In this document: positions 2,133 to 41,898 of the stretch, one piece after another
Position numbering within the stretch: the stretch's first letter is position 1
Layout: each line of letters starts with the position of its first letter
Assembly (NCBI GenBank): GCA_963790465.1
Contig: CAWBOP010000011.1
Coordinates: 73,984 to 137,983 of the forward strand
Origin: Terriglobia bacterium
GTDB taxonomy: Bacteria; Acidobacteriota; Polarisedimenticolia; Polarisedimenticolales; JAIQFR01
Length of the DNA stretch: 64,000 bases
Reading direction: 5' to 3'
Translations under genes and position numbers: made by a program
Notes under the pieces: generated by a model
The model's database searches: none
What the model saw: only the letters and a program-made list of their open reading frames with translations
What the model was told of the DNA's origin: nothing

Positions 2133-3395
2133 TTACGGCGCGCCGGCGGGGAGGAAACTCGTCACCACCATGAGCGCGGTGAGTCCGACGAGAGCGACCG
2201 TCGTGACCCAGGCGATCATGTTGTAGACGGGACCGTTGGTGAACGAGCCCATGAGCGCCTCGTCGTTCACGAGGCGGAGCATGAACAGCAGCACGAACGG
2301 GAGGAGCACCCCGTTCATGATCTGCGAGATCAGGATGATCTTGAGGAGCGGAACCCCCGGCATGAGGATCATCCCCGCGCTCACCGCGATGATCCCGGTG
2401 TACAGGCTGTAAAACTCCGGCGCCTCGCTGAACGTCCGGTTCACGCCGGCCTCGAGCCCGAGACCCTCGCACACGCTGTACGCGGTGGCGAGCGGGAGGA
2501 TCGACGCGGCGAAGAGCGACGCGTTGGCGAGGCCGAAGGCGAACAGCGTCTCGGCGTAGCGCCCCGCGAGAGGCGCGAGCGCCCGCGCCGCCTCGGCCGC
2601 GGACCCGATCGAGTAAAGCCCCGCCTCGTGGAGCGTCGCCGCACAGGCCACGACGATGAAGAACGCCACCACCACCGCCATGATCGAGCCCATGATCACG
2701 TCGAGGCGGGACTTGGCGTAATCGGCGATCCGGACCTCTTTCTCGACGACCGAGGACTGCAAGTAGAACTGCATCCAGGGCGCGATGGTCGTGCCGACGA
2801 TCCCCACGATCATGGCGATCGACTGGAGATCGATCCGCATCGAAGGGACGAGCGTTCCCCGCGCCGCCTCGCCCCAGTCCGGCTTGGCGATGAACCCGGA
2901 GATCGGATAGGCGAGGTACAACAGGCAGGCGATGAGGAACGCCTTCTCCACCGTCTTGTAGTTGCCGAACACCACGAGCCACCAGACGAAGACCGCCCCC
3001 AGTGGGACCGAGACGTAGCGGCTCACGCCGAACAGCTCGAGCGCCGAGGCAAGCCCCGCGAACTCCGCCACCGCGTTCCCGAGGTTCGTGAAGAGCACCG
3101 CCATCATCAGGAGAAACGTCACGCGCAGGCCGAATTCTTCCCGGATCAGGTCGGCGAGCCCCTTGCCGGTCACCGTCCCCATGCGCGAGCACATCTCCTG
3201 CACGACGATGAGAGCGACCGTGATCGGGATCAGGATCCAGAGGAGCTGGTAACCGTAACGCGCACCGCACAGCGAGTACGTGTAGATGCCGCCGGCATCG
3301 TTGTCCACGTTGCTCGTGATCACGCCGGGGCCCATCACCGCCAGGAGCAGGGCGATGCTGGTCCCGAGGCGGCGGAAAAAGCGGCCGAAGGGCAT
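2133..3395 (-). CDS. NRAMP/SLC11-family cation transporter with non-canonical metal-binding motifs (NRMT-like, possibly Mg2+)
   Basis: 420-aa polytopic ORF. GPGVITSNVDNDAGGIYTYSLCGARYGYQLLW aligns to NRAMP TM1, but the DPGN signature reads DAGG. The TM6 region GTTIAPWMQFYLQS replaces the canonical A..MPH. Confidence 0.85.
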   Translation of the reverse strand: MPFGRFFRRLGTSIALLLAVMGPGVITSNVDNDAGGIYTYSLCGARYGYQLLWILIPITVALIVVQEMCSRMGTVTGKGLADLIREEFGLRVTFLLMMAVLFTNLGNAVAEFAGLASALELFGVSRYVSVPLGAVFVWWLVVFGNYKTVEKAFLIACLLYLAYPISGFIAKPDWGEAARGTLVPSMRIDLQSIAMIVGIVGTTIAPWMQFYLQSSVVEKEVRIADYAKSRLDVIMGSIMAVVVAFFIVVACAATLHEAGLYSIGSAAEAARALAPLAGRYAETLFAFGLANASLFAASILPLATAYSVCEGLGLEAGVNRTFSEAPEFYSLYTGIIAVSAGMILMPGVPLLKIILISQIMNGVLLPFVLLFMLRLVNDEALMGSFTNGPVYNMIAWVTTVALVGLTALMVVTSFLPAGAP

Positions 3396-3398
3396 TCC

Positions 3399-4622
3399 CT
3401 AGTCCCCCGTCACCGCCCGGCTGAGGACGTCCTCGATGTTGATGAGCCCCACCAGCTCGCCGTACTCGTCCACGACCGCGAGGCCGCGCAGGTGGTACTT
3501 CTCGAACCGCTCCAGGATCTCCTTGAACCGCGCGGTCGGCGTGACCGCCCGGGCCTCGCGGCGCATGAAATCGGTCACCGGCCGGTCCTCGCTCGCCCTG
3601 ACGACCCGCCCGAGGGGGACCACTCCCACGAGGCGGCCGTCCGTCCCGACCACCGGAATCTCGTCGAGATCGCCGAGCAGATCCTCGTCCACCTCGCGCA
3701 GCTCGGCCAGGGTCCGCCCCACCGTCCACTCCGACTTCGCCTTGAAGAAGTCGGTCGTCATGAGACCGCCGGCGGTGTCGTCGTGGAAGCGGAGCAACTC
3801 CCGGACCTCCTCCGCGTCCTCTTGCTGCATCGCATCGAGCAGCGCACGGGAGCGCGCCTCGGGCAGGTCACCGAGAATGTCCGCCGCCTCGTCCGGCTGC
3901 ATCTCCTCCAGGAGGTCCGCCGCGTGCTCGACGTGGATCGCCTCGACCACCGCCGCCTGCACGCTCGGCTCCGCCTCCGACAGCGCCTGGGCCGCGGTCT
4001 CCGGGTCGAGGGCGGAGACGATCGCGCGGCGCTCGACCCGTCCGAGATCCTCGAGGATGTCCGCGAGATCCGCGGGGTGCATCTTCGCGAGGTGCTGGTG
4101 GACCTTGAGCCGGATCCGGGCGGTACCGGGCTCCACCAGCCCCACGTAGTCCCAGGGGATCGATCGTTCGGAGAGACCGTCCGCGATCCGGCGGACCACC
4201 ATCGGCCTGACGATCCCGGCGAGCAGGCGCCGGACCGCCCCGCCGAGCCCCACCTCGACGCGTTTCAGGACCAGCCGCTCGGCGGCGGGCTCGAGAAGAA
4301 TGTCGTTGACCTTGACCACCTTCCGGCCCTGGATGTCGATGATCTGCCGGTCGAGAACGTCGCGTTTGAGATGCAGCAGCTCGGATGCCTGCCCGTCGAC
4401 CGGCTCCGGTGCCGCTCCCTCGGCCAGCGCGACCCTGCGTGTCTCCGGCGAGAAGCTCTCCACCCCCTCCCACCGGACCCAGGTCCGCCTGCGGCCCGAT
4501 CGGAGCACCAGGCGATCGACGACCCCTCTCGACGAGTCCACGAGGAGATCGTCCACTCGGCCGACACGCCGGCCGCCGGCATCGAACACGGGGATGTTGA
4601 GCGCTTCGGAGAGATGCACCAC
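3399..4622 (-). CDS. Soluble MgtE-N-domain + tandem CBS protein with PRC-barrel-like N-terminus (no transporter membrane domain)
   Basis: MHPADLADILEDL...EEMQPDEAADILGDLP matches the MgtE N-domain pattern. It is followed by a CBS pair (TTDFFKAKSEWTV..., VTDFMRREARAVTP...GLAVVDEYGELVGLINIEDVL). Start chosen at GTG 4622, 8 nt after a GGAGGG RBS; the upstream 50 codons of ORF 3399..4775 look non-coding. The stop is 3 nt before the NRAMP start. Confidence 0.75.
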   Translation of the reverse strand: MVHLSEALNIPVFDAGGRRVGRVDDLLVDSSRGVVDRLVLRSGRRRTWVRWEGVESFSPETRRVALAEGAAPEPVDGQASELLHLKRDVLDRQIIDIQGRKVVKVNDILLEPAAERLVLKRVEVGLGGAVRRLLAGIVRPMVVRRIADGLSERSIPWDYVGLVEPGTARIRLKVHQHLAKMHPADLADILEDLGRVERRAIVSALDPETAAQALSEAEPSVQAAVVEAIHVEHAADLLEEMQPDEAADILGDLPEARSRALLDAMQQEDAEEVRELLRFHDDTAGGLMTTDFFKAKSEWTVGRTLAELREVDEDLLGDLDEIPVVGTDGRLVGVVPLGRVVRASEDRPVTDFMRREARAVTPTARFKEILERFEKYHLRGLAVVDEYGELVGLINIEDVLSRAVTGD

Positions 4623-31203: not shown

Positions 31204-31693
31204 ATGACCCGCTCCGCGCCGACCGCACCTGTCCGCAATGCACTCCCCGACGAAGGCCGCTGGCTGATCGAGATCCTGCTGGCGCTCGCCATCGCGACCG
31301 CGGCGGTCTTCCTCGCGGCCCGCTACATCGCAATTCCCTGGACGGTTCTCGGCCGCTCCATGGAGCCCACGCTCGAGCCGGGCGACCGAGTCCTCGTGGA
31401 TCTTCGCTCGTATCGCGCCCGCGCACCGGCACCCGGGGAGATCGCGCTTTTCGAGGGGCCCGATCGCACTCCTCTGGTCAAGAGAGTTGTCGCCGGACCC
31501 GAGCCTTCCGACGGGCCGCCGCCGTGGTCGCTCGATCCCGGAGACCCGATCTCGCGACGTTTCTGGGTGCGAGGGGATAACGCTCGCGAGAGCGCGGACA
31601 GCAGGGTTTTCGGTGGGGGTGCCGGCCGGGAGATTTCGCGGACGGGTTATCTTTCGGTACTGGCCGGTTTCTCGGATGGGATGGGTGAGGTGA
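31204..31693 (+). CDS. lepB: Signal peptidase I (S26), with an apparent +1 indel in a G-run near the 3-prime end
   Basis: GRSMEPTLEPGDRVLVD (catalytic Ser box), PLVKRVV, GDNARESADSRVFG. The conserved C-terminus VPAGRFRGRVIFRYWP is in another frame (ORF 31487..31693). One fewer G in GGGGG 31615-31619 restores ...SRVFGGVPAGRFRGRVIFRYWPVSRMGWVR*. Confidence 0.8.
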
Positions 31694-31732
31694 CATAGCC
31701 AGTTCCTGCACGACCAATCCCAATCCCAACCC

Positions 31733-31987
31733 GACGCGGATTTCCGGGGATTTCATCCCCGGACCCCTGGCAACCACCGTTCGCAGGGATCGGCGGACCG
31801 ATCCCCGCGAACGGCGGTTTCTACCTGCAAGCCCGACCCGAGCAGGGTTCGAACTCCGGACTCCCAAGTGGAAACCTCCGTTACGGACGGCAGTCCGCTG
31901 CCGTCCGTAATGGAGGTTGCGCGGGCGTTCGCCCGCGGAGGAGAAAAATCCGTTAGCGTCGCCGCCGAGTCGGAATCCCCGCATGAC
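31733..31987. repeat. Repeat unit 1 (255-nt core)
   Basis: GACGCGGATTTCCGGGGATTTCATCCCCGG ... GAGTCGGAATCCCCGCATGAC. Has one G-to-A change in the second hairpin (GCAGGG). Confidence 0.9.
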
Positions 31988-32005
31988 AAACTTCCAATCC
32001 CGCCC

Positions 32006-32260
32006 GACGCGGATTTCCGGGGATTTCATCCCCGGACCCCTGGCAACCACCGTTCGCGGGGATCGGCGGACCGATCCCCGCGAACGGCGGTTTCTACTTG
32101 CAAGCCCGACCCGAGCAGGGTTCGAACTCCGGACTCCCAAGTGGAAACCTCCGTTACGGACGGCAGTCCGCTGCCGTCCGTAATGGAGGTTGCGCGGGCG
32201 TTCGCCCGCGGAGGAGAAAAATCCGTCAGCGTCGCCGTCGAGTCGGAATCCCCGCATGAC
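32006..32260. repeat. Repeat unit 2 (255-nt core)
   Basis: Hairpins at 32016-32036, 32050-32087 (17-bp perfect stem, loop CGGA), 32148-32189 (19-bp stem, loop TCCG) and 32193-32210 (7-bp stem, loop GTTC). Confidence 0.9.
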
Positions 32261-32322
32261 GGATCCCGATCCGGACCCGACGAACCACCGATTCTCAACC
32301 GACAAACCACCGATCCCAACCC

Positions 32323-32577
32323 GACGCGGATTTCCGGGGATTTCATCCCCGGACCCCTGGCAACCACCGTTCGCGGGGATCGGCGGACCGATCCCCGCGA
32401 ACGGCGGTTTCTACTTGCAAGCCCGACCCGAGCAGGGTTCGAACTCCGGACTCCCAAGTGGAAACCTCCGTTACGGACGGCAGTCCGCTGCCGTCCGTAA
32501 TGGAGGTTGCGCGGGCGTTCGCCCGCGGAGGAGAAAAATCCGTTAGCGTCGCCGCCGAGTCGGAATCCCCGCATGAC
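32323..32577. repeat. Repeat unit 3 (255-nt core)
   Basis: Near-identical to units 1 and 2. Confidence 0.9.
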
Positions 32578-32618
32578 GGATCCCGATCCCGGACCCGACA
32601 AACCACCGATCCCAACCC

Positions 32619-32873
32619 GACGCGGATTTCCGGGGATTTCATCCCCGGACCCCTGGCAACCACCGTTCGCGGGGATCGGCGGACCGATCCCCGCGAACGG
32701 CGGTTTCTACTTGCAAACCCGACCCGAGCGAGGTTCGAACTCCGGACTCTCCAGTGGAAACATCGATTACGGACGACGGTCCGCCGTCGTTCGTAATCGA
32801 TGTTGCGCGGGCGTTCGCCCGCGGAGGAGAAAAATCCGTTAGCGTCGCCGTCGAGTCGGAATCCCCGCATGAC
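32619..32873. repeat. Repeat unit 4 (255-nt core, variant third hairpin)
   Basis: The third hairpin, 32761-32802, has 10 substitutions relative to the other copies, yet the 19-bp stem is retained. Confidence 0.9.
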
Positions 32874-32935
32874 GGATCCCGATCCGGACCCGACGAACCA
32901 CCGATTCTCAACCGACAAACCACCAATCCCAACCC

Positions 32936-33160
32936 GACGCGGATTTCCGGGGATTTCATCCCCGGACCCCTGGCAACCACCGTTCGCGGGGATCGGCGGA
33001 CCGATCCCCGCGAACGGCGGTTTCTACTTGCAAACCCGACCCGAGCGAGGGTTCGAACTCCGGACTCCCAAGTGGAAACCTCCGTTACGGACGGCAGTCC
33101 GCTGCCGTCCGTAATGGAGGTTGCGCGGGCGTTCGCCCGCGGAGTAATAAAATCCGGATT
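32936..33160. repeat. Repeat unit 5 (3-prime end diverged after about 33144)
   Basis: Full hairpins 1-4, then GCGGAGTAATAAAATCCGG instead of GCGGAGGAGAAAAATCCGT. Confidence 0.85.
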
Positions 33161-33217
33161 CGCACACGAAAAAGCGCAGGCCCACCCGACCCGAGCGCAG
33201 GTTCGAACTCCGGACCC

Positions 33218-34038
33218 TTAAGTTGAAACCTCGCCAGGATTCAAGCTTCCGGTCCGGTAGCCTTCGAGGTCCAGGGCGACGAAGCGAAAACCGGCCGCCT
33301 TGACCGCCGCCACCACCGCGCTCCGAAGCGCGGGGTCGGACAGGCGGCGGTCGCCGTCGGGATCGAATTCCAACCTCGCGATGTCTCCGTGGTGGCGCAC
33401 CCTGAACTGGCGGAAACCGATCTCCCGCAACGACTCTTCGGCGCGTGAGACCTGGCCGAGGCGCTCCTCGGTGACCTCGATCCCGACAGGGATCCGCGAG
33501 GAGAGGCAGGCGCTGGCCGGTTTGTCCTTGGTCCTCAGGCCTGCGGCCGAGGCAAGGACACGGACATCTTCTTTCGACATGCCGGCCTCGAGCAGAGGCG
33601 CGATGACCTGCCGCTCCTCCGCCGCGCGCATGCCGGGCGGAAATCGCCGCGATCCTCCGCGATCGCGCCGTAGGCGACCGCCGGGAACCCGCGCTCGGCG
33701 GCAATGCGGCCCAGCGACTCGAACAGGGCCGACCGGCAGTGGTAGCAGCGGTCGCCGGCATTGGCGCGGTATTCCGGGATGTCGAGCTCGCCCGGGTCGA
33801 CCTCGACGTGGGAGACACCGAGGGCGGCTGCTGTGTCCCGGGCGTCGGTCTCGTCCTGCCGAGGTAGCGAGGCCGAGCGGCCGGTGACCGCGAGAACCCG
33901 GTCCGTCCCGAGCGCCTCGACCGCGAGCGAGAGCAGGACGGCGGAGTCCACCCCCCCCGAAAAGGCGACCACGACACTTCCGGCGTGACGAAGGCAGGCC
34001 AGAGCTTTTTGCTTCTTTTTAAGAATTGCTGAATTCAT
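33218..34038 (-). CDS. larE: PP-loop ATP-utilising enzyme, LarE-like sulfur transferase family (one apparent frameshift near 33632-33640)
   Basis: VVAFSGGVDSAVLL (PP-loop SGGxDS), DRCYHCRSALF, then, in a second frame (ORF 33218..33631), MRAAEERQVIAPLLEAGMSKEDVRVLA...ACLSSRIP. The join DRGDFRPGMRAAEE needs one extra base at CCGGG 33633-33637. Confidence 0.8.
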
Positions 34039-34289
34039 CGCTCGCTCCAGCCCCCGCGTCGCGTCCCGGCTTTTGGCGCTGCCCGCAGGCCGTCGCGCCG
34101 GAAATCGTCTTCTTCATCCTAGCACTTCGGCGCGACCGCCTGCGGTCGGTGGAACCGCAAAACGCAGGGGAGAACGGCTTGACAACCCGTGGCGATCACC
34201 GTACATGAACGTTGCCCCGTGAGGGAACTGTGTATCGGGTAGACTCTATAGTCCGTTGTGTCCCACTAACCCAAAAGCAGGAGGAGGAT

Positions 34290-37200
34290 ATGCGCATTCG
34301 TTTTCTCGCTGGCTGGAGAGGCCTGACGTTGGCCGCAGCCGTCGCGAGCTTGGTGCTGCTGTCGGCGACGGGAGCCTTCGCAACTGTCGTCGCGAACCCG
34401 ATCGGCGGAACCCAGGGATTCGCCGCCGCGTCGGAAGAGAACACCATCAAGCAGCCGACGCTGTACCCCAGGGCCAACTACCAGTGGCAGTACGGCACTG
34501 GCCCCTTCTATGGGGAGGTGGACGAATCGAACTGGAACGCCAAGGGGGTCATGCACCTGTCCGTCGGCTCGTTCGACACAGGCCGTGGACTCCCGAACAT
34601 TCCGCAGGAACTGCGAACGGCCGTCAAGCTTGACCGACAGGCGGCCCAGTATTTCCTGCTGCAGGTCGATCCGGCGTCGTTCGCCGACGGCTCGTTCGAC
34701 CGGCTCAAGGAGAGCGTCGAAGCAAGCGGGGGCGCCGTCGTGCAGAGCATGCCGGTCGCTGGCTTCGTCGTCCGCCTGACCCCGGCTGCCTTCTCGGCGG
34801 TCCAGGGGCAGCCCGGCGTGCTCTTCCTCGAGCCCTACCATCCCGCGTTCAGAATTTCTCCGTACCTTGGCCGCGTCCCGCTGACGGACCCGGTGAAGGC
34901 TCTGTCGAGCGTCTACTCCGTCGAGATCACGCTGTTCCCGGGCGAGGACTCCAAGGTCGTCGCGCAAGCGGTGGCCGCTCTCGGCGCGAACGTCACGGCG
35001 ATCTGGAGCGACGTGGTGAAGGCCGACGTTTCTCGCGAAAAGATCTCGCAGATCGCGGCCCTCGAGCCCGTCGCGATGATCTTCGAGGAGATTCAGAACC
35101 TCCCGAAGAGCGAAGAGACCACGACGGTTATCCAGCAGGGGCATTACACCAATGGTGCGATCCCCTACCACGACGCCGGGATCAAAGGCAGCGGGCAGCT
35201 TCTCATGGTGCTCGACAGCGGCATCCAGCTCGACGCCGGCGACATATCGGACACCTACTCCAACGCCGGAACGCCCGGCGCGCTGCACCGCAAGGTGCAG
35301 TGGTACACGACGACCAATACGTACCTCGGCGCGGGCGACGCGCTCGGGTGCGACGCGCCCCAGCAGGGCGGCTTCACGCACGGCCAGATGGTGTCAGCCA
35401 CCGCGCTCGGAAACGGCAGCGCGACGTCGCTCGCTTACGGCGGCGCGTGGTACTACACCGATCCGCTCAGCGGCAAGAAGTGGAAACTCGACGGCGTCGC
35501 GCCCGGCGCGCGCGTCGGGCTCTACGACGCCAGCGTGACCGCGACCACCACTTCCTGCGACGACCCCGCCGTGAGCGGGATCTTCCCGGGCAACATCTAC
35601 ACCCGCCCCGGCGTGGCGGGCACAGGTTCCCTGAGCGACGCGTACACGCTCGGCGCGCGCGCGTTCAACTTCTCCTGGGGTCAATACCAACAACCCGGTT
35701 TACGGCACGAACGCCACGAAGATCGACCAGTTCCTGTTCGACAACAAGGACGCCATGCTTTTCGTGTCCGCCGGCAACTCGGCCCTGGACACGGACCGCA
35801 ACGGCTTCCCGGACTCGCTCTCCGTTTCCGACCCGGCGACCGCGAAGAACGCCATGGTCGTCGGTGCGACCGACACGGCGAACGACGGCGGCCTCGACAC
35901 CACGAAGCGCCGCGCCTCCTTCTCGAGCATCGGCCCGGCGACCTTGACCTCGGGGCGCACCGCCCCGGTCATCATGGCCCCCGGCCAGGACATCGGCACT
36001 CTCGGCCCGCTGTCGGAGTACTCCTGCCGCACGAACGACAACGACCAGAACAACCCGGTCGAGTGCGACGTGATGCTCGGCGTGGCCGGCACCAGCTTCG
36101 CGTCTCCTGCCGCCGCGGGCGCGGCCCTTCTCGTTCGCGACTACTTCGTCCAGGGGTTCTATCCCGACGGCACCGCGAGCAACACGCTGAACGCGGCGGA
36201 CCAGGTCCCGAACATCTCCGGCGCGCTCGTGAAGGCGATCCTGATCGCGTCCGCCGATTTCCTCAATTACCCCTGCTACTTGGGGGATCCGAGCTGCACG
36301 ATCAGCACGGCGAACCCGACCAAGTACCGCTTCAACAACGAGCAGGGGTACGGGCGCGTCCAGTTGAACAACATCCTGCCGCTGCTCACCTACCCGAGCC
36401 CTGTCGGCCTGATCGTGGCGGACGGCGGGATGGTCGGCGGAGTCAACAACACGTCGTTCTCGGGCACCGCGGGCGCGGGCACCACCGAGACGTACACCTT
36501 CACGATCTCCGACACCACGAAAGAACTGCGGGTCGGCCTGGCCTGGATCGAGGACGCCTCGGACGCCTTGGCGAACGACCTCGATCTCGAGCTTGTGTCT
36601 CCCAGCGGAAAGATCTACTGGGGCAACTACTTCACGGACGACAACGACAGGGACCGGCAAAGCGATGTCGGCGAAGATTGCGCCGTAGCTCCGTGGGAGG
36701 CATTGGCCACCGCGGACTTCTACCCGTGGAGCCTTCCCACCTGCGCGAACTCGATGCGCGACACGAAGAACCCGACCGAGGCGATCTTCCTGTCTCCCCA
36801 CCCGGATTACACCGTCGGCGCGGGTTCCACCCTGCCTGATCCCGATCCCAAGAACCAGCTCGAGGCCGGGTCCTGGACCCTCAAGGTGATCGGACGGACG
36901 GTCCCCGCGGGCAGCCAGAAGTACGCGGTGGCGATCGCCGGGCCGGTCCAGCTCGGCTCCTCGGTTCGCCTCAACGTCTACCGGGCCATCAGCGGCACGG
37001 ACGTGCTGGTCGGCGACCTCCCCGCCTGCAACGACAAGGTGAAGGTGGTCGTCAACGAGTACGCCGACGTCACCGATCCGACGCCGACGACCTCGCAGGT
37101 CAGCGCCCGGACCGTCGTGCAGGTCCTCGACAGTGTCGGAAGCGTTATGGACCAGGAGACCAACCTGGCCTTCACGCAGGACGCCGGCACGCTCAAGTAC

Positions 37201-40200
37201 AGCTCCTCGATGGTGATCCTCACCGACAGCATGCTGCCGGTTTCCGGCAACGGCGTCCTCGATGTGCGCGATGGTCAGACGATCAAGGTGTTCTACAACG
37301 ACCAGACCAGCGGGTCGGCCGATCCGAACAAGACGCGATTCAACCAGACGACCGTCTACTGCCGCAGCACGATTCTGTTCGGCGGCGTCACGTTCGGCCT
37401 GTTCGGCAAGGACATGGCGGTGGCGATCAATGGCGGCTGCGAGCGGGATGCTCGCGGCATGTTCACGTTCGGCTACCCCGACCAGTACATGGATCACGGC
37501 GAGCTGATCGACTTCCAGATCGCCGTCCAGACAGCGGATACGACGGATCTCGAGGACGCGGTCGCCACGCTCAAGGCCGTGTACCACGACCTCGACAGCC
37601 CGGCGAGCTGCCTGCCGAACACCACCGGGTGTACCGATCCGAACCGGACGAACAACGTCCCGGTCGCAAGCTCGATTCTCACCGTGCTGGACTCGCCGAA
37701 GATTATCGGCCTCATCCCGGCCCAGTACAGCCCGAACGTCAACCAGACGTCGGCGCCGGTCTTCGCGGTGAACTTCACGATCCAGATGGGGGCCGTGATC
37801 ACCGGGAAACTCGACGTCGACATGATCCTCGGCATCTCCGCACGGAAGGCCGGCAAGCCGATCGAGGGGCTCTCCGTCTACCGGATGGACCTGAACGCCA
37901 ACGAGACGGCGCTCTATTACTCGACCGATTTCCCGACCGGCGGCACCCAGAACTACGACTGGAACAACAACGAGTCGCTCGAGAATCCCTCTTCGATGCT
38001 GGGCGATGTCAACGTCCAGTGGGACTACCACTTCGAGACCGTGACCTGGTCCGACCTGACCGCGGGCGGCACTCGTAACACGTCGCTCCAGTCGCCCTGG
38101 AAATTCGACACGAACAACGGCGGATTCCGCTCGGGGCTCAACTCCGGGACCAACGCCGCCACCTCCGGTGTGCTCGCGCAGTGGGGCGAGGACAAGAACT
38201 TCAACGACATCCTGGACACCGGTGAAGACCGCGACCCGTCCAATAGCCTTCTGGACCAGAACTGGTCCACGAAGGGCGGTTGCGGGTGGCAGACCAAGGC
38301 CCTCACCACCAGCGCCACGGGCGGTGTCTGGCACACCGGCAGGATCGACGTGACGACCCTGTCGCAATGCGCCAAGAGCGGGAGCATCAGTTCCCAGTGC
38401 CAGACTTACGAGACATACCCCGGCATCACCGCACAGAGCTACTGGTGGGAGCTCCTCGAGACGCCGGTGATCAATAAGGTCAACCCGACGGTTGACGCCG
38501 AGGGCCGGCCCGTCTACCGCGTGCAGTTCACCAACTGGGCGTGGAACATGGCAATCGACATGCCGGACTCCCTCGCGATGATCACCTGGGAGTTCGACAC
38601 CGATCTCGACAAGATCAGTCCTATCACGCTCGAGGCGGACGGCAACCTCTTCAACAGCCTGTCCGGCGCGTTCGGGACGGTCAGCATGGGCAATGCGCCG
38701 CTGACCAACGGCTTCCCGGTGTTCGCCGATTTCAACGGCACCGGCGCGACCACATCGAAGAACGGCACGATCGGCGGGAACCACGAAGGGAAGAATCCCT
38801 GCACCTTCGAGGAGTACGGATCCCGCTACACCCCGTACGGGTTTGCCCTCCCGGTCGACGACGATCTCCGTAACGGCTGGTGCGAAGCCGCGAACGTGGC
38901 GGACCGCACCTGGAACAAGCAGACGTCGTGCACGACCGCGGACCAGGCGACGGTCTGCCTGGCGCCGACGTATCACGGCCTCTGCGTGTTCGACGCCGGC
39001 TCGTCGACCGACCTGTACGTCTACAAGAACGGACCGCTGCGCAACATGAACCTCGAACACGTGAACGGTTGGATCGACGGCCGGTACTACACGCTCGAGG
39101 ACATCTACGGCGACTCCGGCTCCCGCTTCCAGGGGGCCGTCGGGTTCGTCGCGTTCGAAGGAACGACCAGCCTCGCGCCGAAGAACGGCTACGGTGTCGC
39201 GATCGACGACATGGTGGTGGAGTGGAAGGAAACACGGACCGACGAGGACACCACCACCAACTGCAGCACGGCGGGAGCCTGCGCAACGCTCAACCTCTCC
39301 GCTGGGACGTTCTACTCCGGCCTCGCGGTGCTCGAAATCACCGTGACCGACCGGTCGCCCGGCAACCTGTTGGGCGTGAATGACTGCGACCACAACGGCC
39401 TTTACACCGATCTGGGGGTAGACGACAACGACTGCGACAACAACGGAACCCCCGACGTGCCTCTCCAGGCCTACAACGACGTCGAGCCGCTCGGCGAATG
39501 GGTGGTCCTGAACCAGACCAGCGTCACAGGGGTGTTCAAAGGGAACTTGCCGATCTCCTCGGCCTTCGACTCGGCGGGCACCCTCTTCGTCCAGAAGCAG
39601 GGGACGTCGCCGGCGTCGGTGACGGTCAAGTACCTCGACCCGAACGACGGAACCGGCCAGCCCTGCAAGGCGAGCCCCGACGCCGCCCAGTGGGGCCAGG
39701 TGCAGGCCTACGCGAGCGTCTACGTTCCGTTCCTGAACGTCACCGTCAAGTCGAGCCGGGTCGTGAGCCTCACGGGAGACGGCGACGGTTTCGCCGACAC
39801 GAACGAGACGGCGCAATTGTGGATCACCATCTCGAACAAGTCCACCGTCGACCTCACCAACATCGTGGCCCGGCTGGTCTCGAACGACCCCAAGGTCGAC
39901 TGCATCCTGCAGCCGACGATCACGATGGCGTCGCTCGCCAAGCTGACCACCCAAGAGATCGGTACCCCGTTCGTGTTCCACGTTTCGTCGACAGCCAGCC
40001 GGCCGGCCGGCGGCGAGAACAGCGAATTCACGGCGAAATTCAGCGTCACGATCGCCTCCGACCAGATGGATGCGACCTCCGCTGCCCAGGAGATCACGAA
40101 GGAGTTCGATCTCGACATGACGGGCGGGGGCACGGCGCTGAACTACGTCGAGGGGTTCGAGGGGGGCTTCGGAACGTTCACCTCGATGTCGCTGGACAAG

Positions 40201-41898
40201 GGACTCAACACCAACCTGCTGTCCGACGGCATGCGTTGCCAGTACAGCGACCCCGACTACATCAACTCCAACTCCTACGGCGAGAAATACTGCTACCTGG
40301 GATTCGCGGGCAAAACCGATGAGTTCAACATTTTCGACTGGCACATTCACTCGACCGCGAGCCCCGACGGCGGACGCGCCTTCCTGGGAAGTAATTCCCT
40401 GCACTACGGCTTCCACCAGTCGGCCTCGGCGGACAACGACATAACCCACTTCTCCTCGATGGACGCGATCCGGATAAACAATCCGGTCAACCTCGGGTAC
40501 ACCCCCGTGACCCCAGGCGATCCCGAGATGTCGTTCAAGATGCAGGTTTCGATGATGGACTACCGCTCTGTCAACGCGCTCTTCATGCAGGCCCCCGACC
40601 GCGCTGTCGTCGAGCTCCAGTTCGCCGACACCGCCGGCACCCCCACGGGCGTCTGGCAGAAGCTGTATCCGTTCGAGAACACTTACGACATCCAGACCTC
40701 AAACAACTACATCAACTGTATTTTCGACCCGAGCGACGACGGCAACAACGAGGACAGCTATTTCTCGCCGACCGATCCGCTCAGGTGGTTGGGCCCCTCC
40801 ACCACCTGCTACCCGGAGTTCAACTTCGGGTCGGTCGGTAGCACCAACTGGAACAACGGGTTCATCCCCGGCACTACCGAGCGCGCTTCCGACGACCGCA
40901 TCGGCCTGCAGGGCTCGATCGATCGCGGCACCTGGGTCCAGACGAAGTTCAACTTCGATCGGTACCTCGGCCGCAGCGTCCGTCTCCGTTTCCTCGCAAC
41001 CACGATCAAGGTGAACGACACCACGGATTGCATCGCGCTCGGCTTCCCGAACAAGAGGTCGCTGGACGACGGGTGGTGGATCGATGACCTCCGGATCTCC
41101 AACACGATGAGCAGCCCGGCCACGATATCCGCGGACACCAAGGACAACTCCGCGCTCGCGGCCTGCCCGGCCAACTGCACGACGGTCACGGCAGCGCTCG
41201 TCTCCAGCCCGAGTACCGCTCTCGCGGCGCCCGGCCAGGTGGTTGAGCTTCGCGCCGCCGGCTCGTCCGCCGACATCTGCCTCTCCGGCACGCTCCAGTA
41301 CCAGTTCTGGCTCGACAACAATAGCAACGGAACGTTGAGCACCGTCGACGGCGACACGCTGGCGCGCGATTGGTCCGACAACTCGGCGTACATCGATGCT
41401 CCGCTGTACTCGACGCAATATGGCGTCAAGGTCCGTTGCTCCTCGGCGCCGACTTGCGCGAGCCAAGCGGTCCGCGCCGTCGTCGTCACCTGCCCGGGCA
41501 CCGTGCAGACGTTCTTCTGCCCCACCATCTACGTCAACAAGCTCAATCTCACTGGCACCGTCGAACCGGACAACACCGTCTGGGTCGCGGGCCTTACCGC
41601 GGCTACCCCTGTCGACGTGATTGCCGGCAATCTCACCGCGCTGAGGACTGCCAAAACCTACACCGGCAGCGCGCTGGCGTGCCTGGCGAACGACGGCACC
41701 CTCCCGTATTACATCCCCATCGGCCCAACGATCCTCGACACGACGCTGGCGCTCACCCCCGGCCAGGCGCAGTACTACCTGTGCCGGCCCCAGGGGGCGA
41801 GTTACTGCAACGCGAAATACACCTACAGCGCGGGCGCCCCGAAGGAATTGGCGGGTCGCGACACCGAGATCGCCGCGGGCGCGATCAAGTGCCCCTGA
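34290..41898 (+). CDS. Giant secreted subtilisin-like serine protease (peptidase S8), about 2,500 aa, with a very long C-terminal extension (one apparent frameshift at G-run 35677-35680)
   Basis: AGGAGGAGGA RBS then ATG 34290. Signal peptide MRIRFLAGWRGLTLAAAVASLVLLSATGAFA. Catalytic triad context: LMVLDSGIQ (Asp), GGFTHGQMVSATALG (His), LFVSAGNS (oxyanion Asn), GVAGTSFASPAAAGAALL (Ser). The protein continues from ORF 34212..36839 into ORF 35755..41898 at ...AFNFSWG/VNTNNPVYGTNATKIDQFLFDNKDAMLFVSAGNS. Confidence 0.85.

Follow-up and report, generated by a model that had tools for sequence, protein, structure and literature searches.

A tandem array of inverted hairpin dimers between convergent lepB-like and larE genes in an uncultured high-GC bacterium

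In the 64,000-nt stretch of a Terriglobia bacterium contig that was analysed here (GenBank CAWBOP010000011.1, positions 73,984 to 137,983; in the following, the window), a lepB-like signal-peptidase gene and the convergently oriented gene larE are separated by a non-coding tandem array of five units, each of which is an inverted, head-inside dimer of one oriented hairpin module. We see about an even chance that this array represents clustered copies of a non-autonomous family of palindromic repeats that resembles repetitive extragenic palindromes (REPs) as well as bacterial interspersed mosaic elements (BIMEs), here oversized and tandem-amplified. This reading rests on the module head, the inverted dimers, the tandem reiteration, the position behind stop codons, the heterodimers of stem subtypes, the presence or absence in relatives and the insertion of an IS110-family element at a fixed point, all of which match published descriptions of REP/BIME elements. 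On present evidence, the array is not a categorical novelty; it is a new form of a known kind of repeat element. An earlier reading of this DNA, made from the sequence alone, had taken the unit for an RNA-like element that could not be classified, a description which is only partly right in view of the two-fold pseudo-symmetry of the unit, the contrast between inserted and empty sites, the copies behind other stop codons and the landing of an IS110/IS1111-family element in a module.

Architecture of the array and its unit

Tandem Repeats Finder reports a single array at 31708–33156, with periods of 273, 296 and 317 nt, 90–94% matches and scores of up to 1999. A repeat search resolves it into five head-to-tail units, spaced by 273/317/296/317(318) nt and 87–100% identical, together with a sixth, partial copy made of 49 nt of the central segment (33184–33232). 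The core start CCCGACGCGG is found by pattern search at 31730, 32003, 32320, 32616 and 32933, and all six occurrences of the centre-derived 16-mer GGTTCGAACTCCGGAC in the window fall inside the array (chance expectation, 0.2). The sequence-only reading had described the same five copies, spacings and extra central-segment copy, with core starts within 3 nt of those given here and a divergence of copy 5 at 33144, and on these points it was right. The array is composed as follows.

31694–31729, no strand: left junction and spacer, CATAGCCAGTTCCTGCACGA followed by (CCAATC)n; fast-evolving and different in the 84% relative L002
31730–32002: unit 1, with small hairpin hp1 (31743–31763), hairpin A (31772–31819), centre (31827–31861), hairpin B (31873–31918), small hairpin hpC (31921–31936) and tail type i (31937–31981)
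32003–32319: unit 2, with hp1 (32016–32036), hairpin A (32045–32092), centre (32100–32134), hairpin B (32146–32191), hpC (32194–32209) and tail i (32210–32254), closed by a 62-nt spacer built of 22-nt sub-repeats
32320–32615: unit 3, with hp1 (32333–32353), hairpin A (32362–32409), centre (32417–32451), hairpin B (32463–32508), hpC (32511–32526), tail i (32527–32571) and a 41-nt spacer
32616–32932: unit 4, a variant, with hp1 (32629–32649), hairpin A (32658–32705), centre (32713–32747), hairpin B of subtype 2 (32759–32804), hpC (32807–32822) and tail i (32823–32867)
32933–33169: unit 5, with hp1 (32946–32966), hairpin A (32975–33022), centre with a 1-nt insertion (33030–33065), hairpin B (33077–33122), hpC (33125–33140) and tail type ii (33141–33169)
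33170–33184, no strand: odd junction AAAAGCGCAGGCCCA, which links unit 5 to the terminal partial copy
33185–33233, no strand: terminal partial copy, consisting of the centre, GTTG and GAAACCTCG, which overlaps the 3' end of larE

The spacers between the units derive their length (18, 41 or 62 nt) from the copy number of a nested 22-nt sub-repeat (CCGATCCCAACCCGACG...) of the unit's left edge, which is present in one to three copies in the window (32266–32326, 32888–32939) and in four copies ahead of the first unit of L002 (1920–2005). Tail type ii (GGAGTAATAAAATCCGGATTCGCACACGA, 33141–33169) terminates unit 5 and no other unit of the window, and is also found in two related contigs, L044 and L105, which are described below.

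Every unit contains four hairpins, namely hp1 of 9 bp, hairpin A of 22 bp with one A·C (plus strand), hairpin B of 21 bp with one G·U, and hpC of 6 bp. Four stem-loops per core had been noted before and are indeed present throughout; the stem lengths given then were in part too short (8 bp for hp1, 17 bp for A, 19 bp for B), and hpC has 6 bp instead of 7 bp. Folding of one unit yields z-scores of −8.8 for the plus strand and −7.4 for the minus strand relative to dinucleotide shuffles. When hairpin B of unit 4 is compared with that of units 1–3 and 5, six pairs are altered, and pairing is kept in all six. The three central parts of the unit are best seen in unit 3, which serves as the reference.

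32362–32409, minus strand: hairpin A, read as GTAG-A-(22-bp stem, loop TCCG)-GC, which repeats the B module in inverted orientation
32417–32451, no strand: centre and dyad axis, GCAAGCCCGACCCGAGCAGGGTTCGAACTCCGGAC, found in all full and partial copies
32463–32508, plus strand: hairpin B, read as GTGG-A-(21-bp stem, loop TCCG)-GC

Each unit is an inverted, head-inside dimer, because one and the same module recurs as hairpin A, when the minus strand is read, and as hairpin B, when the plus strand is read. On the minus strand, hairpin A reads CAAGTAGAAACC, stem with loop TCCG, GGTTGC, a small GC hairpin (hp1) and AAATCCGCG; on the plus strand, hairpin B reads CAAGTGGAAACC, stem with loop TCCG, GGTTGC, a small GC hairpin (hpC) and AAAAATCCG, and the left half of the unit (minus strand) aligns to the right half (plus strand) across ~130 nt. 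The symmetry was tested in a non-circular manner with a covariance model trained on B-type hairpins alone. This model scores hairpin A with 46.4 bits on the minus strand, where the whole model aligns, versus 21.3 bits on the plus strand, where only the bare stem does; in L044, the scores for the two strands are 40.2 versus 20.2 bits. The loops of A (minus strand) and B (plus strand) also covary between lineages, with TCCG in the window and TCCT in L044. Along the array, A and B alternate, being 53 nt apart inside a unit.

The module comprises ~100–130 nt and consists of half a centre, a GT(A/G)G head, a hairpin of 20–22 bp with the loop TCCG, TCCT or TCTG, the motif GGTTGC, a short GC hairpin and, at the end, an A-rich tail that closes with AATCCG. 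Two such modules with their heads inward make up a unit of ~225–255 nt, an orientation for which the term “tail-to-tail” is used by Di Nocera (PMC3733652). In module orientation, the long stem is paired in 147 of 147 cells over seven distinct sequences (30–47% in slid controls), and 13 of its 21 pairs show double-sided changes. All non-Watson-Crick cells are G·U on the module strand, i.e., A·C on the opposite strand, which suggests that folding occurs in the module strand, either as single-stranded DNA or as RNA.

Insertion site and copies at other loci

Comparison with relatives identifies the array as an insertion, since the stop codons of lepB and larE are only 1–62 nt apart at syntenic sites, i.e., 1 nt in L102 (an NCBI contig of GCA_041479655.1 that is fully syntenic and whose larE is 76% identical), 2 nt in the contig encoding P0003 and 62 nt in L104. 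The filled site is common to the window, the same-species Logan contig L001, the contigs L002–L004 (lepB 84% identical) and L101 (larE 92% identical). The short-read contigs L001–L004, from the same or related organisms, all stop at the start of the array, and none of them spans it. The location between convergent lepB and larE, as described in the sequence-only reading, agrees with the Pfam assignments and orientations of the flanking genes.

31204–31698, plus strand: S26 signal-peptidase (lepB-like) gene (Pfam PF10502, E = 2e-18; P0001 100% identical)
33218–34038, minus strand: larE, a PP-loop ATP-dependent sulfur transferase gene, split by a frameshift into open reading frames (ORFs) at 33535–34038 and 33218–33631, which overlap at 33535–33631

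A 1-nt indel in a G-run shifts the frame of the lepB-like gene in this assembly (31615–31619, GGGGG in the window versus GGGG in L001); therefore, its true stop is probably the TGA at 31691–31693. The one-base frameshifts in both flanking genes point to a long-read assembly and are probably homopolymer errors rather than marks of true pseudogenes. The best homologues of the larE product are 92–74% identical; some of the more distant ones are named LarE, and those of 62–66% identity bear Acidobacteriota names.

At its right edge, the array reaches into the coding sequence, given that the terminal partial copy encodes the final five codons of larE (GEVST) and the TAA stop at 33218–33220. In L101, the junction is identical to that of the window, and larE likewise takes its GEVST* end from the terminal partial copy; at empty sites, the gene product ends in ...LNPSRSLP* or ...LNPSRTGA*. 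The larE-proximal inner arrangement is not alike in the window and L101, hence, the array was remodelled after the two lineages had split.

The 3' intergenic region of lepB seems to be repeat-prone in this clade. In L097 (1440–1529; lepB 62% identical), a different tandem repeat, GAGGGACAGGTACC x3, follows directly upon lepB, and the contig ends within it. Downstream of larE, the window contains a very large subtilase-like (Peptidase_S8) region (34212–41898), apparently frameshifted into ORFs 34212–36839 and 35755–41898; L102 encodes a 1694-aa S8 protein at the corresponding place.

Copies of the element were found at three further loci in related contigs, namely L044, L105 and the contig encoding P0170. 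In L044, which stems from the same metagenome as L004, 1.5 diverged units separate two unrelated genes in convergent orientation; they include a B hairpin of the unit-4 type (subtype 2) and tail ii. The subtype 2 hairpin and a centre with “GCAAACCC” are common to units 4–5 of the window and to L044/L101. The sharing of subtypes across lineages (B1 and B2 hairpins, two centres, two tails) implies that the units of the window are mosaics of an older family rather than products of one recent duplication. Copies in the window, L044, L101 and L105 begin ~0–25 nt from a stop codon.

The two remaining loci were reached through proteins. An exhaustive HMMER search with one of the shadow ORFs of the array matched P0170 and P0171 among 1.84 billion cluster representatives. 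P0170 is a predicted “protein” of 301 aa on a 109-kb NCBI/ENA contig and represents a translated tandem array of 2.6 units with a period of ~117 aa, i.e., ~351 nt, and P0171 (JGI) was traced to contig L105 (Ga0373624_0057456). These “hypothetical proteins” of public databases are, thus, translated repeat arrays.

In L105, a solo module lies behind the stop of another gene, in the order gene stop, centre, GCAAGTAG, an IS110/IS1111-family element, AACCTCCG... (B-type hairpin), hpC, tail ii and a spacer, after which another unit begins. The IS110/IS1111-family element (2161–3712) sits at most 1–2 nt from the boundary between GTAG and the stem of the module; it encodes a transposase on the minus strand (2467–3630; PF01548 and PF02371) and, besides inverted repeats in subterminal position (ATGGAACGACC/GGTCGTTCCAT), possesses 300 nt of non-coding 3' sequence. 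Guide segments matching the target were sought in its non-coding ends, where a single 7-mer matched, which is the chance level. In L105, the unit that begins behind the spacer is interrupted in its hp1, where a group II intron has its 3' end (1–1995; Rfam RF02003 at 14–148 and RF00029 at 1902–1993; reverse-transcriptase gene at 604–1893). The same junction of intron and hp1 recurs at the lepB locus in L004 (846–969; 98% over 144 nt), so that this intron may home to the repeat.

Non-coding status and competing explanations

The region 31321–33361 is the longest run in the window that lacks third-position GC periodicity (2040 nt, compared with at most 660 nt elsewhere), at a third-position GC content (GC3) of ~0.85–0.9 in the genuine genes of the window. 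The shadow ORFs of the array have no Pfam match, and their frame shifts from unit to unit because the spacers differ in length; the earlier claim that the array is non-coding is supported on all three counts. A six-frame translation searched against a word-indexed protein database gave no match. A Pfam scan of ~45 ORFs from the window revealed no transposase, integrase, reverse transcriptase or cas gene, in agreement with the sequence-only reading, which had seen no mobile-element or cas gene nearby.

Host selection could also account for the array, which would then be a bidirectional 3'-end element between convergent genes whose mobility is incidental. This explanation, which we regard as unlikely, overlaps with the REP/BIME-like one and differs only in what maintains the array. 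Hairpins placed exactly between convergent stops would block read-through and collisions and shield both messenger RNAs from 3' exonucleases, with each tandem copy adding to the barrier, and RNA roles of this sort are documented for REPs. Three edges close to genes (in L105, on the left side of L044 and in L101) show a stop codon followed by the centre, the head and then a hairpin in sense orientation relative to the gene upstream, and the array has been kept in lineages with flanking proteins 8–16% apart. However, no U-tract follows any hairpin, no terminator was found within the units, and close relatives have just 1–62 nt between lepB and larE. The first hairpins met from the lepB side are antisense, and five copies exceed the needs of a barrier.

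It is decidedly improbable that the array is a series of genes encoding a new structured non-coding RNA, in which the unit, or an outward-transcribed half-unit, would give a hairpin-rich regulatory or protein-binding RNA. The extreme predicted fold on both strands (z = −8.8 and −7.4), the compensatory changes in the long stems, the confinement of G·U wobbles to the module strand, the missing coding signal and a GGAGGAG/CUCCUCC tract adjoining hpC would all be in keeping with such genes. As the unit is a two-fold inverted dimer, a single directional RNA gene is unlikely. Furthermore, truncated, rearranged and solo modules abut stop codons at other loci. A promoter scan with a sigma-70-like model, which may not fit the promoters of this lineage, returned none, and two terminator-like sites were found, both of them located towards larE, beyond the full units. 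Tandem arrays of small-RNA genes, such as CcsR1–4 of Rhodobacter and NsiR1 of Anabaena, likewise consist of head-to-tail structured non-coding units in one intergenic region; there, each copy is directional with its own promoter and terminator, whereas here the unit is an inverted dimer, and neither a promoter nor a terminator within the unit was detected. The Rfam score for CcsR1 is 13.6 bits, compared with a gathering threshold of 65.3.

No Rfam family is matched at the gathering threshold in the whole window; this search had been proposed along with the earlier remark that the unit could not be matched to an RNA family, which it bears out. Searches for transfer RNAs (tRNAs) and transfer-messenger RNAs were negative, and GGTTCGAAC in the centre does not, by eye, qualify as a T-arm. 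In E-value mode, the sole lead is RAGATH-10 (RF03147), with 30.7 bits versus a gathering score of 41.2 and E = 0.0027, confined to units 1–3; the other matches are miRNA-type models on bare hairpins. In these three units, hairpin B, hpC and GGAGGAGAAAAA align to the whole model, including GAAACCUC and GAGGAGAAA at its ends, which could be taken as favouring RNA genes. In contrast, units 4 and 5 and the L044 homologue remain unmatched, and the outer helix of the model's three-way junction cannot form in unit 4 or L044, where the competing long hairpin is retained and covaries. In unit 4, the 5' strand of this helix changes from CCUCCG to CAUCGA, with compensation within hairpin B and not in the partner predicted by the model. 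RAGATH-10 was rejected because the diverged copies do not preserve it.

A chance as low as that of the RNA genes is given to the module being more than a passive REP-like repeat, namely a new class of large composite hairpin element of an uncultured, probably acidobacteriotal lineage, whose sense strand would work as RNA (e.g., multi-copy and 3'-UTR-derived, i.e., from a 3' untranslated region, or outward-transcribed) or which would be spread by an enzyme other than the REP-associated tyrosine transposase (RAYT); either way, tandem arrays would be selected for dosage.

Very little speaks for an assembly artefact, e.g., a repeat expanded or mis-joined in long-read assembly that would have created the array or its copy number. 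Homopolymer frameshifts do occur in lepB and larE, and short-read contigs all break at the array. Independent assemblies, nevertheless, contain its left edge (L001, L002–L004), its right edge (L101) and related units (L044, L105), and P0170 represents another array. Besides, the units differ in structured ways (B subtype 2 in unit 4, three spacer lengths), while artefactual copies would tend toward identity. A protein-coding repeat, be it a real gene or a pseudogene, can be practically dismissed, for although stop-free minus-strand ORFs of 191–275 aa run across the units and gene callers predicted such ORFs elsewhere (P0170, P0171), the third-position GC periodicity of real genes is missing, the reading frame is not constant between units, Pfam is silent, and substitutions preserve base pairs rather than codons.

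Several further identities were considered and rejected. A clustered regularly interspaced short palindromic repeat (CRISPR) array would have identical repeats of ~23–50 nt and unique spacers of similar length, whereas the repeat here has ~255 nt and the “spacers” consist of the 22-nt sub-repeat at lengths of 18, 41 or 62 nt, two of them being identical; moreover, no cas gene is present. Integron attC sites are excluded by flanks (GCAACC/GGTTTC and GAAACC/GGTTGC) that by eye misfit GTTRRRY, by the perfect stems and by the lack of cassette ORFs and an integrase. A sponge of the CsrA type would require a strand-specific GGA signal, which is not given because GGA and TCC are both ~1.8-fold enriched on both strands, and a Dam cluster was discarded since GATC shows no enrichment.

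Relation to known palindromic repeat families

If the array is a REP/BIME-like cluster, an ancestor of the lineage would have acquired the family at the point where the stops of lepB and larE abut; the dimer would then have been repeated five times, presumably by unequal recombination or replication slippage, with one to three copies of the nested 22-nt sub-repeat setting the spacer length. Copies might spread as hairpins of single-stranded DNA by means of a Y1 (RAYT- or TIRYT-like) transposase, or an enzyme of similar kind, whose gene would lie in another part of the genome. In transcripts of the convergent genes, these hairpins could, like REPs, act as 3'-end barriers to exonucleases and read-through.

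A number of observations weigh against this reading. The hairpins measure 44–48 nt, with perfect stems of 20–22 bp and loops of 4 nt, as opposed to the 5–13-bp stems of the short REP palindromes, and the stems are about twice as long as those of any published GTAG REP. The head varies, being TAAG in L101, ATGG in the first module of L044 and GTTG in the terminal partial copies, and the polarity of the G·U pairs comes down to 5–6 independent events (roughly p = 0.02–0.03). At the junctions of filled versus empty sites, no target-site duplication or defined cleavage site is readable. Outside the array, neither blastn nor the covariance model R1 (next best score, 14 bits) finds a module in the 64-kb window, nor does R1 find one in 18.7 kb of the syntenic relative L102; therefore, copies are much sparser than in classical REP families. 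Of 1.84 billion cluster representatives, no more than two predicted proteins match the translated unit, and an 18-mer from the unit start has real copies in the JGI metagenome collection only at the lepB locus and in L044. Finally, neither a Y1/RAYT nor any other transposase was found in the window or L044, nor one next to the modules, and a RAYT (Y1 transposase of the HUH type) is missing from L105, too. The earlier reading had named many dispersed copies next to a RAYT, i.e., ordinary REP/BIME elements, as an alternative that would overturn it, and this alternative applies in part; dispersed copies exist at other loci, but no RAYT was seen in the window, L044 or L105.

Other searches for copies gave little. 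Scanning metagenomes with CGACGCGGATTTCCGGGG returned 90 loci, and of the newly returned ones only L044 carries the element, the others being chance 18-mers. A scan of the genome collection with GGTTCGAACTCCGGACN{7,11}GAAAC had no match, and one with the hpC pattern GTTGCGCGGNCGTTCGCCCGCGG yielded solely a chance GC hairpin by a tRNA gene in an alphaproteobacterial metagenome-assembled genome (MAG). Nothing genuinely similar was found in viral contigs, plasmids and phages. The alphaproteobacterial hairpin (L095 3060–3082 and L096 3601–3623) lies, by eye, just upstream of the tRNA gene and is unrelated to the array; the ~500-nt region around it occurs on two contigs of the one MAG.

Should the REP/BIME-like reading be true, repeats of this type would reach an uncultured high-GC lineage in an unusually large format, with 20–22-bp stems, a dimer of ~250 nt and array periods of 270–350 nt. 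Such repeats can rewrite the 3' ends of genes, as in larE, which owes its final five codons and its stop to them; short-read assemblies of metagenomes break at them, and they spawn spurious database proteins, such as P0170 and P0171. An IS110/IS1111-family recombinase and a group II intron both use the modules to land in; they are natural repeated targets of the sort used by RNA-guided recombinases of the IS110 family. No long-standing question is opened by this tidy new repeat family, and its relevance is moderate, concerning bacterial repeats, IS110/IS1111 targeting and metagenome assembly.

Among known mobile repeats, the miniature inverted-repeat transposable elements (e.g., ERIC, RUP and Correia) resemble the array in that its unit, too, is non-coding and dispersed and forms, as a whole, an imperfect palindrome, with inverted segments at both ends (CGACGC..GGATTT). 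They differ in that filled and empty junctions here reveal no target-site duplication and no parent insertion sequence was found; moreover, the arms of the unit are perfect hairpins, and tandem arrays and solo half-units are atypical of these elements. The TIR/TIRYT families resemble the array in being longer, partly self-complementary repeats of moderate copy number that form dimers or clusters. RAYT-like “TIRYT” genes with repeat families have been reported in Acidobacteria and Stenotrophomonas (PMC3733652), the former phylum matching the names of the LarE homologues. The GGGGWSAS motif of several TIR families is, by eye, absent from the unit.

REPs have been described as palindromes of 20–40 bp with a stem of 5–13 bp and a loop of 2–20 nt (PMC3733652, Table 1), usually in more than 100 copies per genome, with 20–100 or fewer in some families. 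Apart from its stem length, the array deviates by a second small hairpin and a conserved tail in each module, a dimer of ~225–255 nt, the low copy number implied by the lack of a further copy in 64 kb, and the absence of a RAYT from the window, L044 and L105. It agrees with the published traits, i.e., GTAG or GTGG at one end, though not invariably, inverted partners 20–100 bp apart, dimers repeated in tandem clusters together with flanking DNA, and a position downstream of genes (Nunvar 2010, PMC2817692; Di Nocera 2013, PMC3733652). GTAG heads hairpin A (minus strand) in all five units of the window and in L044 as well as the B-type hairpin of L105, and GTGG heads hairpin B in each of the five units as well as in L044's second, degenerate unit. 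The sites are extragenic, mostly just downstream of genes and often convergent ones, and the inverted dimers form regularly alternating clusters. Like REP/BIME elements, they include heterodimers of two stem subtypes, and, like REPs, which are known targets of IS110-family elements (PMC1525189, PMC12288879), the modules have been entered by an element of this family.

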